A stretch of 30,649 bases of DNA, taken from positions 1 through 30,649 of the forward strand of contig CANDHX010000001.1 in NCBI GenBank assembly GCA_947384645.1, read 5' to 3'. The translations under genes were made by a program, and so were the position numbers. This stretch comes from an uncultured Mycoplasmatota bacterium (GTDB lineage Bacteria; Bacillota_I; Bacilli_A; RF39; UBA660). Below are positions 4,938-19,183 of the stretch, in pieces. The stretch's first letter is position 1; every line of letters begins with the position of its first letter. The notes beneath the pieces are model-generated. The model did not search any database, was not told the DNA's origin, and was given only the letters and a program-made list of their open reading frames with translations.

Positions 4938-5684
4938 CTAATTTTGATTTTTATTGTCGACTTCTCTTGCTTTGATGTTTGCATCTAATAGAGTATCATA
5001 TGTTCCGGCATCGAACCAAAAAGCATCGCTGTTCAAAGGAATTCCTCTAAACCTATTTAATTCGATATATTGGCTAAAGACATCTGCCATTTCGTATTCT
5101 CCACGAGAAGACTTTTTTACATTGGGAAGCTTTAATACGACATCGCTTGGAAAAAACGTAATCCCCGTGACGACTAGATTGGTTTTAGGATTTTCTGGTT
5201 TTTCTTCTATTGAAGTAATAAAGCCTTCTTTGTCTATATCGATTACTCCAAATCTTCTAGCATCTTCTCTTTCACAAACGGCAATCGAAGCATAACCATT
5301 ACTTAGATTTAACTTTCCTTCTTGGATTAATTTCTCTAATCCTTCTCCTAAAAAAACGTTATCTGAATACAGTAATAAACTGTCGTGTCCCAAGATGAAC
5401 TCTTCGCTTACCTTAAAGGCGTCGACCGTCCCAAGTGCTTCTTTTTGTAAACCATAACAAATTTTAAGTCCAAATTCACTACCATCCCCTAACTGTTTTT
5501 TTATGTACTCCTCTGTATCCTTAGAAACGATTACCATTACTTCTTCGACATTTGCTAATTTCATTATATCTATAGAATAATAAATCATCGGTCTATCATA
5601 AATCGGTAACATGATTTTAGGTATCACAGTCGTTAGGGGCTTTAATCTTGTACCTTTTCCTGCCGCTAGTATTACACCACGCAT
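4938..5684 (-). CDS. rmlA: Glucose-1-phosphate thymidylyltransferase (short RmlA/RfbA type)
   Basis: GVILAAGKGTRLKPLT, PKIMLPIYDRPMIYY, EEKPENPK, SSRGEYE, WFDAGT. Confidence 0.88.
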   Translation of the reverse strand: MRGVILAAGKGTRLKPLTTVIPKIMLPIYDRPMIYYSIDIMKLANVEEVMVIVSKDTEEYIKKQLGDGSEFGLKICYGLQKEALGTVDAFKVSEEFILGHDSLLLYSDNVFLGEGLEKLIQEGKLNLSNGYASIAVCEREDARRFGVIDIDKEGFITSIEEKPENPKTNLVVTGITFFPSDVVLKLPNVKKSSRGEYEMADVFSQYIELNRFRGIPLNSDAFWFDAGTYDTLLDANIKAREVDNKNQN

Positions 5685-6958
5685 TACTTCTCATCCTTTT
5701 CTATCAAATCGATTATCACCTGAGCTTTATGTGCCCAATCGTTTTCTTTTGCTTCCTTATCTAAAAGCTCGATGTATTTCTTATCATTTTTTTTCTTCAA
5801 GGCTAAATCTAAACACTTCATAAACTCATCGTGGTCATGCCCAATCATGACACTCTTATATTGTCTACACTCTTCTAAATCGGTTATGACGATTGGCTTA
5901 TGTAATGCCATATATTCGAATATCTTAACTGGACTAGTCGACTTAGTAATATTGTTTAACAAAAACGGTATGGTCATGATATCGCATTTACGAGCATAAT
6001 TTTTTAAAACAGTATAATCTCTAGTTCCCAAAAAATATACGTTATTCAAGTTCTCTATCCCGCTTTCTTCAAACGAAGCGTCGTACTTTATTCCAAAGAG
6101 TACGATACTGTATTTATTAGAGTCAGCAATTTTCTTTATGAGTTCATAATCGCACCACATCGCTAGAGAACCGTAATAACAAATGATAGGTTTTTTCTTA
6201 TCGAGTATCTCTTGAAACTCACTTTCGAATTCATAATCTTCATCATAAGTTTTAAAGAAATCGTAATCGACACCGTTCGACGATAACACTAAGTTTTTAC
6301 GACCTCTTCTTTTTACGACGATATCTTCGAGCGTCTTTGCTGTAACCACCATATACACATCGTCGTGTGTCAAAACGTACTCGTATTTATCGGTTATGTT
6401 TTTAGGCAAAAACTTAGTACCTGCTAGTTCAGGAGATAAATCGTCTACGTATTCATATATAAATTTGAAACCTTTATCGATATAATTCTCGATGTCTTTT
6501 ATAGTAAGCTTCCAATCGGTCGAATAGAGTTGAATATACTTCGGAATATCGACTTCGCTCAACACATCCATCAATATTTTATTCAACTTGATATTGTTAA
6601 AATTGAATAAATATACATTGTCTTTTTTCTTTTTAAAAATCTTTACCTTATCGGTCATCGTCGTAACTTCATAAAATACTAGACATCCATTCTTTGCTAG
6701 ATTATTAGCTATGTGTTGGGGTCTTTGAAATAAAGCCACATTATATCCAAAGCTACTTCTCCAAAGTACTATCCTTTTAGCTTTTGAAGATTCGATAATA
6801 TCTTTGAGCTCTTTTTTATATTTCTTTTTTAAAATCATCGTCTTAAAACTGATTTTATCGAAATAATTAGCAACTATATATTTATAAAGTTTTTTCATAA
6901 AACCGATAAAACCGTGTTTCTGATAAACTGTAATGAGTTTGTTTATTTTTTCTTTCAT
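5684..6958 (-). CDS. GT-B glycosyltransferase (TuaH-like, GT4 type)
   Basis: FQRPQHIA, NGVDYDFF, YYGSL, C-terminal PVKIFEYMALHKPIV. Confidence 0.85.
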   Translation of the reverse strand: MKEKINKLITVYQKHGFIGFMKKLYKYIVANYFDKISFKTMILKKKYKKELKDIIESSKAKRIVLWRSSFGYNVALFQRPQHIANNLAKNGCLVFYEVTTMTDKVKIFKKKKDNVYLFNFNNIKLNKILMDVLSEVDIPKYIQLYSTDWKLTIKDIENYIDKGFKFIYEYVDDLSPELAGTKFLPKNITDKYEYVLTHDDVYMVVTAKTLEDIVVKRRGRKNLVLSSNGVDYDFFKTYDEDYEFESEFQEILDKKKPIICYYGSLAMWCDYELIKKIADSNKYSIVLFGIKYDASFEESGIENLNNVYFLGTRDYTVLKNYARKCDIMTIPFLLNNITKSTSPVKIFEYMALHKPIVITDLEECRQYKSVMIGHDHDEFMKCLDLALKKKNDKKYIELLDKEAKENDWAHKAQVIIDLIEKDEK

Positions 6959-6976
6959 CTATTTACCTAACTTTCC

Positions 6977-7005
6977 CATATTAAGCATATCATTGAAAGC
7001 TTCAT
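6977..7005 (-). promoter_or_regulatory. Sigma-A promoter for the GT-rmlA-cyclophilin unit
   Basis: Minus strand TTGAAA, 17 nt, TATGCT, with TG at the extended -10 position. Confidence 0.5.
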
Positions 7006-7233
7006 TTTTCAAGAAGAACCAATTATACTTTTAAGCTCTCTTGTGTTATTGATTTATTTACTTCGAGCTTTTTTTAAATATATAGTTTTTTTCCTTTTTC
7101 TATTTTTGATATAATGGTACCAAATTCTACTTATAAGACGTTATATCTTACCTTTTTAAATTAAGTTTTATTGGGTCAAAAAAAATTAATTCAAAAAACT
7201 CGTTTGTCCAAATTTTCCTTTTAAATAGACGGT

Positions 7234-7262
7234 TTGACAAACTTTTAGGGTTGTGTTTTAAT
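7234..7262 (+). promoter_or_regulatory. Sigma-A promoter for the small peptide gene
   Basis: TTGACA (7234-7239), 17 nt, TTTAAT (7257-7262), preceded by extended -10 TG (7254-7255). Confidence 0.7.
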
Positions 7263-7379
7263 AGATAACCGAACATGCTGAATCGTGGTTTGTTTGTTCT
7301 CCATTTTTCTTCACAAAAATTATTCACAGGTGGTTTTGGTGTTAAGAGTTAGCTCAAGAAAAAGGAGGTTATGTAAAAT

Positions 7380-7457
7380 ATGCAAAAGACCAATCGTCAT
7401 TTAATCATATTTTTATATATCACTTTAGGGATTATCATCTATCTTTTGATAAAATAA
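7380..7457 (+). CDS. 25-aa hydrophobic peptide MQKTNRHLIIFLYITLGIIIYLLIK, candidate type I toxin (absent from ORF track)
   Basis: AGGAGG at 7363-7368, own promoter, single TM-like helix flanked by basic residues, stop followed by a GC hairpin (7473-7510). Confidence 0.65.
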   Translation: MQKTNRHLIIFLYITLGIIIYLLIK

Positions 7458-7467
7458 TTACTTAAAG

Positions 7468-7510
7468 AAAAAACACAGCCTTCGATATCTGTGAAGAGTA
7501 TCGGCTGTGT
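7468..7510. terminator. Intrinsic terminator hairpin between the convergent transcripts
   Basis: ACACAGCC (7473-7480) and GGCTGTGT (7503-7510) with an inner GATA/TATC stem. The U-tract is on the minus strand; plus-strand use is less certain. Confidence 0.65.
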
Positions 7511-7552
7511 ATCAACACCTGGAGATACACACTAGCTCTAGCGTGTTCCTCT
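7468..7552 (-). ncRNA. ~85-nt small RNA convergent with the peptide gene (candidate antitoxin)
   Basis: Minus-strand TTGAAA (7587-7582), 17 nt, TATAAT (7564-7559). 5' hairpin ACACGCTA-GAGC-TAGTGTGT. 3' hairpin ACACAGCC...GGCTGTGT followed by a U-run. No ORF. Confidence 0.65.
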
Positions 7553-7750
7553 AATATGATTATAATATTTATTATAAATTATTTCAATACTATTTGTTTC
7601 TCGAATTCCTAAATTTAGATAAATGTATTTAATCCAGTAAACATATTATATTTATTTAATAGACCCGCTTATATATTTCTAAGACCTAATATCAAATTTT
7701 GCGAGAATTCCAAATCAATTTTAAACATAATCTAAAATTTTTCCAAGACT

Positions 7751-8176
7751 TCAGTTTTCTTTTTTTATAAAGACTAAAAATTTGCTTATTATATAATTTA
7801 ATACCAATATTACGAACTGGGACACTATCTTCATCAGTTTATCGTTAAAGTGTAGTACAGTCACAGATAAAAACATCAATCCCATTTCTAATACCAAAGT
7901 TAAAATTCTAGCCCCGTAGAATTTTAAAGCCTCTTCCAATACTTTGGAATTCTTACTTTTAAAAACAAAAATTCGATTTGTAAAAAAGGCAAAAGTTACA
8001 GATAAAATCCAAGAAATGATAGTTGCAAGCTGCAATAAAAAAGCATTATCTGGATTAAAAACCGTTAATACACATAAGTAATAGCTTCCAAGACTTACTA
8101 AGGTTGTACATCCGCCGACTATTATATAGTTTATTATCTCTTCATATTTTTTATATAATTCTTTTAATTTCTTCAA
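7751..8176 (-). CDS. GtrA-family protein (lipid-linked sugar translocase-like)
   Basis: EIINYIIVGGCTTLV, FAFFTNRIFVFKS, KIVSQFVILVLNYIISKFLVF. TTG start with AGGAG RBS. Confidence 0.92.
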   Translation of the reverse strand: MKKLKELYKKYEEIINYIIVGGCTTLVSLGSYYLCVLTVFNPDNAFLLQLATIISWILSVTFAFFTNRIFVFKSKNSKVLEEALKFYGARILTLVLEMGLMFLSVTVLHFNDKLMKIVSQFVILVLNYIISKFLVFIKKEN

Positions 8177-18946: not shown

Positions 18947-19183
18947 AATTCTTAGCCACCTTCTAAAAAGTATTATACTATAAACCCCCACATCTAGCAA
19001 ACACTATCTATTAAAAAGTAAAATTTTTTTGCCAAATTTCCCCAATAGAATAGGCGATTTGACGAGCGATACGACTTGTGTTTTAATAAAAAATAGAAAC
19101 ATACAAATTTAGTCGTGCCAATCAAACTTTGGAGAACACTTTTTTTAAATATTTTACAAGTTCAAATGAATAGTTTTTGTGTT

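Follow-up and report, generated by a model that had tools for sequence, protein, structure and literature searches.

The present study describes a repeated two-gene module, in which a gene for a 25-amino acid (aa) membrane peptide faces the gene for a small antisense RNA (sRNA), as a probable toxin-antitoxin-like pair representing a new type I-like family. The ~350 bases of interest, one copy of this module, lie within a 30,649-nucleotide (nt) stretch of DNA (hereafter, the window; contig CANDHX010000001.1 of assembly GCA_947384645.1) from an uncultured Mycoplasmatota bacterium. A preliminary description, made from the letters of the window, had proposed a candidate type I toxin-antitoxin locus in this segment, and all of the elements it listed are present in the sequence where it placed them (Table 1). 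The toxin-antitoxin-like interpretation now has the support, as far as sequence can provide it, of multi-copy conservation, the covariation of three helices, a coding signature in the peptide open reading frame (ORF), and an asymmetry in the decay of the two genes. Likewise, what had been raised as a possible new family now appears probable, as no described family was matched. The chromosomal, multi-copy module also conforms, at the sequence level, to the generic definition of type I systems: it contains a small (< ~60 aa) hydrophobic, membrane-directed peptide ORF and a convergent noncoding RNA gene with a predicted overlap of at least 40 nt with the toxin 3' untranslated region (UTR).

The module is present in numerous copies both within its own genome and among relatives. 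A DNA search of the assembly (1.19 Mb in 155 contigs, 83% complete) detected a 92%-identical sister copy on another contig and, on several contigs, paired matches to the two query ends, while a profile search yielded 9 full-length and 5 partial copies. Both promoters with their 17-nt spacers, the helix enclosing the Shine-Dalgarno (SD) sequence, an invariant TGGTTTTGG leader block, the ORF position, and the shared hairpin are all found in each of the 9 full copies. Among the 18 species genomes of the genus, 10 are matched by a covariance model of the sRNA (R1), with 3–18 matches each, and 15 by a model built on the sequence of the 5' leader and its toxin promoter (R3).

The predicted toxin gene bears the signature of a coding sequence. 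The 25-aa peptide named in the preliminary description is indeed encoded in the window (MQKTNRHLIIFLYITLGIIIYLLIK) and is predicted to form a single hydrophobic helix. Conservation of the ORF, which had been suggested as a check, is borne out as well, with the ORF, its SD, and its length retained in ~40 modules of 10 species despite differing nucleotides. Opposite nearly every sRNA gene there is a hydrophobic ORF of 22–32 aa with an SD, and its stop codon falls 0–17 nt from the sRNA 3' end. In 24 pairs of equal length, the ORF frame has 222 differing codons, 90 of which are synonymous, compared to 46 of 218 and 37 of 220 for the two remaining frames. The peptide sequences themselves are widely divergent (e.g. 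MKKETFYRTLVFMLLLVILSLIICR; MVKLLNKMFNTIVVLILIIIILLISR; MRDKLKTVLGLILALAVLVLVCEGD) and consist of a polar N-terminus, 14–19 hydrophobic residues, and a short, usually basic end. One subfamily, MK[IL]xIDFDGL, is common to three species. The major peptide type of the window's own genome is MSNNYKLYLIIYLLLFIVLILSIKI, and a second type is represented by the window copy together with its sister. In these two copies, the ORF starts 11 nt from the SD, compared to 7 nt in the major subfamily, and a minimal ATG-TAA start-stop (7371–7376) lies between the SD and the true start codon.

Evidence for the sRNA gene comes from its promoter and its structure. The minus-strand promoter TTGAAA-17-TATAAT of the preliminary description matches the consensus at 11 of 12 positions, and TTGnAA-17-TATAAT recurs in all 9 own-genome copies and in orthologues. 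The ORF-less RNA of ~85 nt that this promoter was said to drive, ending in the hairpin shared with the toxin transcript, is confirmed as a predicted gene. The sRNA (7552 to ~7465) is predicted to fold into two hairpins at -29.1 kcal/mol (z = -3.1), and no shuffled sequence folds as well; across copies, the two hairpins are maintained in a length of 85–93 nt. Compensatory changes occur at 19–22 of the 27 base pairs, and the covariation score of 0.24–0.27 exceeds that of shuffled alignments (0.13–0.16, with 0 of 500 reaching the observed value) as well as slid controls (≤0.12). These values were obtained using a manual structure and a covariance-model alignment, as RNAalifold returned no structure from the raw MAFFT alignment.

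On the opposite strand, the promoter TTGACA-17-(TG)-TTTAAT is likewise present, and its key positions (TTG of the -35, TRTG at -16, and the first and last T of the -10, TnnnnT) are invariant across 27 aligned modules. The toxin mRNA presumably starts near 7269, and its leader of ~111 nt agrees with the ~110 nt estimated initially. The pairing of CTCCATTTTTCTT with AAGAAAAAGGAG, which had been proposed to occlude the SD, is found in the minimum-free-energy (MFE) fold of the toxin mRNA (z = -3.5, SD helix included), and the mean probability of an unpaired SD in the predicted folds is ~0.13. In almost all modules, the MFE leader folds have a CUCC-containing segment ~25–35 nt from the predicted start paired with the SD. 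The flanks of both segments vary between modules, yet remain complementary, as illustrated by mean duplex energies of -12.2 kcal/mol for cognate partners vs. -7.6 kcal/mol for partners swapped between genomes (p = 1e-12).

A further helix, absent from the preliminary description, connects the two ends of the toxin mRNA. Just 5' of the anti-SD segment, a leader segment termed X (+9 to +32) is complementary to a 3' UTR segment, X', comprising an A-run and the 5' arm of the 3' hairpin. The X:X' energy is -14.7 kcal/mol for cognate pairs vs. -9.2 kcal/mol for swapped pairs (p = 2e-11), and each position of this fold-back helix is occupied by 2–5 pair types. In transcripts cut after the X' arm, a 5'–3' helix of 7–17 bp forms in the MFE folds of all 28 distinct modules. 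The SD is paired in both mRNA states, whether the fold-back or the local 3' hairpin is formed. Between the anti-SD segment and the SD, 27–72 nt 5' of the start codon, nearly all modules of all species also contain the motif UCAGGGGnGUUUUGG, for which no covarying partner was found. This motif may serve as a processing site, a standby site, or a decoy SD.

Table 1. Coordinates of module features and of a second, decayed copy within the window.
Feature	Position	Strand	Details
Conserved element upstream of toxin promoter	7204..7233	+	Alignments; consensus TGyC-N-TTTTCCTTTTAnATAGrCr
Toxin promoter	7234..7262	+	-35 TTGACA 7234-7239; 17-nt spacer; -16 TGTG 7252-7255; -10 TTTAAT 7257-7262
Toxin mRNA 5' hairpin	7270..7296	+	Predicted folds; its 3' part X (~7282-7295) supplies the 5' side of the 5'-3' fold-back
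Anti-SD segment CUCCAUUUUUCUU	7299..7311	+	Pairs with 7356-7367 in the MFE fold; covaries across modules
Conserved leader motif ACAGGUGGUUUUGG	7326..7339	+	Genus consensus UCAGGGGnGUUUUGG
SD region	7356..7368	+	GGAGG 7364-7368; 3' strand of the sequestering helix 7356-7367
25-aa hydrophobic peptide ORF (predicted toxin) MQKTNRHLIIFLYITLGIIIYLLIK	7380..7457	+	Stop included; position and hydrophobic character conserved in ~40 modules
X'	7471..7486	+	A-run and 5' arm of 3' hairpin; 3' strand of fold-back; inside the stretch covered by sRNA 3' arm and U-tail
Shared 3' hairpin	7473..7510	both	Intrinsic terminator for the minus-strand sRNA, U-run 7472-7465; helix covariation
Predicted antitoxin sRNA, ~85-88 nt	7465..7552	-	5' hairpin 7551-7522 ending CUCC; linker; terminator hairpin
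sRNA promoter	7559..7587	-	TTGAAA 7587-7582; 17-nt spacer; TATAAT 7564-7559; 11/12 positions
Decayed second copy	19020..19165	+	nhmmer and R3 matches; no ORF remaining

The two genes of the module do not decay alike. Among the 9 full copies of the own genome, the position of the 25-aa ORF is open and preceded by an SD in 6 and damaged in 3: one has lost both the SD and the start codon (C24), one has a premature stop (C74), and one carries a mutated SD (C38). Two additional own-genome loci (C45a and C20) consist of the sRNA only, and all five of these loci retain the sRNA promoter. Relatives also include loci in which the sRNA is kept and the toxin is dead or missing, either through deletion of the ORF (G003:C19), mutation of the SD (G006:C9), or as an orphan sRNA (G006:C15). 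Altogether, at least 7 sRNA genes with intact promoters (C24, C74, C45a, and C20 of the own genome, together with G003:C19, G006:C15, and G006:C9) are found opposite a dead or absent toxin ORF. For the reverse situation, every strong hit of the R3 leader model, which is independent of the sRNA, was inspected if it had no listed sRNA. An intact ORF accompanied by a diverged sRNA was present in four of these hits, and in three the module was truncated at the end of a contig; the remaining two were a frameshifted toxin without an sRNA (i.e. both were lost) and an unrelated lgt promoter. No intact toxin ORF without an sRNA was encountered among the strong R3 hits. Such an asymmetry is what one would expect of a peptide that does harm unless its RNA is present, although this evidence is indirect and comes from copies that are not independent.

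How the two RNAs relate to each other differs from what had been anticipated. They are complementary over an extended stretch only where they overlap in antisense orientation in the toxin 3' UTR, a stretch that includes the fold-back strand X'. The preliminary description had invoked repeat-mediated pairing of the kind known from par, but the repeated 5' segments turned out to be same-sense copies rather than complements: the first ~35 nt of the sRNA are a locus-specific copy of the mRNA 5' hairpin and anti-SD segment, with alignment scores of 23.8 for cognate same-sense segments, 14.2 for non-cognate segments, and 12.0 for antisense, and 645 of 744 aligned bases of the two 5' domains are identical. 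This same-sense similarity rules out pairing of the par DRa/DRb type. A proposed contact between the apex of the sRNA 5' hairpin (CUAGAGCUAG) and the leader segment UUAGCUCAAG (7349–7358) did not hold up either. This pairing comprises 8 Watson-Crick pairs, one G-U pair, and one mismatch, a chance-level result (13% of shuffled leaders score as well or better); in the 92%-identical sister copy, two changes without compensation reduce it to 7 of 10 positions, and the target segment is missing from the other subfamilies. Consequently, a loop-to-leader antitoxin contact was rejected on the basis of its chance-level score and lack of conservation.

Other potential contacts were surveyed as well. The sRNA sequence UUCUCC (CU box) can pair with any SD of the family at ~-14 kcal/mol, i.e. 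generically, and a generic duplex search between the mRNA 5' half and the sRNA 5' half did no better than shuffles. Modest trends were seen for the 5' arm of the sRNA terminator against X of the mRNA (-12.1 vs. -9.6, p = 9e-4, with 11 perfect bp in copy C82) and for the sRNA 5' domain against X' (-12.8 vs. -11.0). When the 5' domains of the mRNA and sRNA are compared, 41 transitions preserve pairing and 11 break it, which would fit a longer 5'–3' duplex formed upon transcriptional read-through, yet this asymmetry was not used because base composition could explain it too.

We infer the transcript ends, the toxicity of the peptide, and its repression by the sRNA, and several aspects of their functionality can be proposed. 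A sigma-A-type promoter with a -16 TRTG would drive a toxin mRNA of ~225–250 nt encoding the single-helix hydrophobic peptide, which is predicted to be membrane-active. Two intramolecular helices would keep this mRNA untranslatable, namely the pairing of the anti-SD segment (+30 to +42) with the SD and the X:X' fold-back as an alternative to the local 3' hairpin. A strong convergent promoter would yield the ORF-less sRNA of 85–93 nt, whose terminator half would be perfectly antisense to the toxin 3' UTR including X', and whose 5' half would constitute the locus-specific, same-sense copy of X and the anti-SD lock, ending in UUCUCC. Given that the loops are complementary, the sRNA may dock on the toxin 3' hairpin via its loops, by analogy to bsrG/SR4 (PMC3834814). 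The resulting duplex of at least 40 bp could then be subject to double-strand-specific cleavage followed by mRNA decay, as for RatA and SR4, and the sRNA may also present its CU box to the SD. Translation of the toxin would presumably require processing or opening of the 5' lock, if hok, tisB, dinQ, and zorO are a guide (PMC5668327). The sRNA covers the 3' strand of the fold-back and carries a same-sense copy of the 5' lock, and on this basis a more speculative role can be entertained, albeit with considerable doubt: the sRNA might function as a spare lock in trans, re-sequestering the SD and 3' UTR of toxin mRNAs that have been stripped of their own 5' lock, or toggling the switch between hairpin and fold-back. 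To our knowledge, an antitoxin that mimics a cis-inhibitory element of its own toxin mRNA has not been described for type I systems.

A number of observations weigh against our interpretation. The peptides have no homology to any proven toxin in Pfam or NCBIfam, and the listed sequencing runs that hold the region include no RNA run, only low-share mouse-gut DNA metagenomes. The toxin -10 element, TTTAAT, lacks the usual A at position 2, which is why the promoter scanner missed it. In none of the copies is the plus-strand 3' hairpin followed by a U-tract that would mark the 3' end of the toxin mRNA, and in transcripts containing the full hairpin, the MFE folds of 24 of the 28 modules prefer the local 3' hairpin over the fold-back. 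Outside of the antisense overlap, no locus-specific complementarity between sRNA and mRNA was found: the sRNA pairs with cognate and swapped SD regions equally well (-13.9 in both cases), and par-like direct repeats between leader and sRNA were rejected, as they score no better than non-cognate pairs. In addition, the statistics rest on related, non-independent copies.

These points invite other explanations for the module, each of which meets its own difficulties. The gene might encode a non-toxic small membrane protein, such as a modulator of a membrane complex, placed under antisense and structural control as part of a regulatory module. Many membrane peptides of 20–30 aa are harmless regulators, the toxicity of this one is a prediction, and its copies reside among housekeeping genes rather than on recognizable mobile elements. 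However, a small regulatory protein normally has one gene, of conserved sequence and linked to the operon of its partner, whereas here 5–20 scattered copies per genome encode peptides that diverge rapidly and retain only their hydrophobic character. Neither the double translational lock nor the decay of toxin ORFs with the sRNA kept, and never the reverse, would be expected of such a gene, and we consider this explanation unlikely. Lower still is the probability we assign to a noncoding repeat, be it a structured RNA or promoter cassette or a miniature mobile element, whose ORF would be incidental and would never undergo translation. It would account for a multi-copy element of ~375 bp with many copies at contig ends, for three hairpins with related stems, and for an SD that is predicted to be paired almost always. 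A mobile element was nonetheless rejected, as there are no terminal inverted repeats, the homology stops at the two promoters, and no plasmid or phage matches were found. Furthermore, neither the retention of ORF, SD, and length in the face of nucleotide divergence, nor synonymous changes about twice as common in the ORF frame as in the others, nor a peptide motif such as MK[IL]xIDFDGL conserved between species would be anticipated for an ORF that is never translated. Finally, promoter-like hexamers, a hairpin, and a short ORF could come together by chance in AT-rich intergenic DNA, and promoter-like matches at 9 of 12 positions are in fact no more common in the region than in its shuffles (8 found, 7.0 expected). 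Yet every element is conserved with covariation in paralogues and orthologues, which refutes a chance constellation and leaves it next to no probability. A toxin-antitoxin-like pair is, in our judgment, the probable identity of the module.

When examining the distribution of the module, it is evident that it is restricted to a single genus in the data surveyed. With strict filters, R1 found no match in the family outside this genus (150 genera), nor did the broader model R2 in 40 genera. A pattern scan of 185,579 species genomes gave model-confirmed matches only in metagenome-assembled genomes (MAGs) of the same genus; the model did not bear out further pattern matches in Prevotella, Acutalibacteraceae, Eubacteriales, and a Bacillus MAG. 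The module-bearing MAGs of the genus are variously titled uncultured Bacilli bacterium (one in a mouse gut catalogue), Muribaculaceae, or bacterium. The Muribaculaceae titles (among L087, L092–L095, L097, L098, L102, L104, L106, L107, and L109) look wrong; the MAGs in question share the genus-specific module and match genomes of the genus.

Within the window, the locus occupies an intergenic gap (6959–7750) flanked by minus-strand ORFs of 424 aa (5684–6958) and 141 aa (7751–8176). The preliminary description had connected it with a glycan gene cluster, but this position is incidental because 8 other copies in the genome adjoin ordinary genes, among them ftsW/rodA, rlmN, rpsL (ribosomal protein S12), and genes for ABC transporters and a class-V aminotransferase. 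Abutting the toxin -35 is a conserved element of ~30 nt with the consensus AATGCCAnnTTTTCCTTTTAGATAGGGCAT, which occupies the same position in other modules (alignment columns 1–30) and is possibly an insulating terminator or an operator; in the G004 copies, a perfect GC-stem hairpin with a T-run extending into the -35 takes its place. Another intergenic gap of the same gene cluster contains the decayed second copy, one of the 5 partial copies of the genome. Here, a deletion between similar segments ATTTAGTCGTG has apparently brought the toxin promoter, with the beginning of the 5' hairpin, right up to the distal sRNA gene portion and its -35.

Rearranged copies are found among relatives too. 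Tandem arrays of 2–4 modules occur in G003:C1 (L014 810–1570), G003:C27 (16632–17376), and G014:C3 (34192–36229 and 46296–46812). The leader with both locks is deleted from one G003 copy, which has its toxin promoter almost directly against the start codon and retains an intact sRNA. A copy at G000:C32 10201–10663 (L043) consists of the promoter, the leader, and the first ~10 codons followed by unrelated sequence, creating a 48-aa chimeric ORF antisense to the neighboring gene. No sRNA accompanies this copy, which either died through rearrangement or reflects a repeat-induced misassembly.

The 25-aa genes and sRNAs of the module escape standard annotation pipelines. The module represents a candidate family with good support, drawn from an uncultured lineage of mouse-gut Bacilli with small genomes (~1.4 Mb), and occurs at the unusual density of roughly one locus per 100 kb of genome. 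Its ~40 natural variants provide covariation-backed models of both the toxin mRNA (SD lock and fold-back) and the antitoxin RNA, and comparable structural models took years of bench work for most families. Should the module be confirmed, an antitoxin whose 5' half copies rather than complements the toxin leader would offer a new and testable regulatory idea.

Among known type I systems, the module's architecture invites comparison with par of the Enterococcus faecalis plasmid pAD1 (RNA I/Fst and RNA II) and the Fst/Ldr family, whose features are listed in PMC7472228. Like par, its convergent promoters are located at the ends of a locus of ~350–400 bp, its two RNAs meet at one shared hairpin to yield complementary terminator stem-loops, an intramolecular helix sequesters the SD, and a small single-helix toxin is predicted in a member of the Firmicutes. 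Unlike par, there is no DRa/DRb complementarity between the RNA 5' ends over the start codon and SD, the terminator of par is bidirectional whereas the shared hairpin here has a U-tract on the sRNA strand only, and the sRNA is ~88 nt as opposed to ~40–65 nt for the par antitoxin RNA. The Fst/par family is further recognized by a toxin signature comprising a transmembrane helix with P/D/S/T-xxx-G(C), a conserved Trp, and a C-terminal tail that is highly charged (PMC7472228). The module peptides end 1–3 residues past the hydrophobic stretch and, unlike Fst, have neither a charged C-terminal tail, nor the conserved Trp position, nor this motif, and 11 of them searched at E-values up to 10 gave no match to the Fst/Ldr family model (PF13955 or NCBIfam) and only weak chance matches elsewhere in Pfam and NCBIfam, all far below the curated cut-offs. 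The absence of the Fst signature remarked upon in the preliminary description agrees with both results. As two features defining Fst/par fail and there is no homology to the Bacillus subtilis or enterobacterial families, we have filed the module as a new family.

The control of the module is reminiscent of hok, tisB, dinQ, and zorO, whose primary toxin transcripts are inert and which are subject to two layers of control by cis structure and antisense RNA, both being typical traits of type I systems (PMC5668327). The X:X' helix would join the two ends of the toxin mRNA in the way known from hok, although this is an analogy only; these are Gram-negative systems unrelated to the module in sequence. 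The mRNA of hok requires processing for activity. As a difference, the fold-back of the module leaves SD accessibility unchanged in the predicted folds. Sok, IstR-1, AgrB, and OrzO all act on the 5' part of their mRNAs, while the antisense RNA of the module covers the 3' partner of the fold-back.

In this respect, the module resembles bsrG/SR4, txpA/RatA, bsrE/SR5, and yonT/SR6 of B. subtilis, in which a cis-encoded antitoxin overlaps the 3' end of the toxin mRNA. No sequence similarity to the B. subtilis toxins or RNAs is apparent: an Rfam scan of 6800–7900 at E-values up to 10 returned only noise, and no protein family was matched. The B. subtilis toxins are 38–59 aa and reside mostly on prophages or prophage-like elements, whereas the module peptides are 22–32 aa and their genes are found among core genes. 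Furthermore, the B. subtilis overlap extends into the coding region, whereas that of the module involves the 3' UTR only, unless the mRNA reads through. For SR4, the first contact is made via the terminator loop, and the antitoxin both promotes decay and tightens the SD-sequestering helix (PMC3834814). These 3'-overlap systems of B. subtilis come closest to the probable mode of action of the module.

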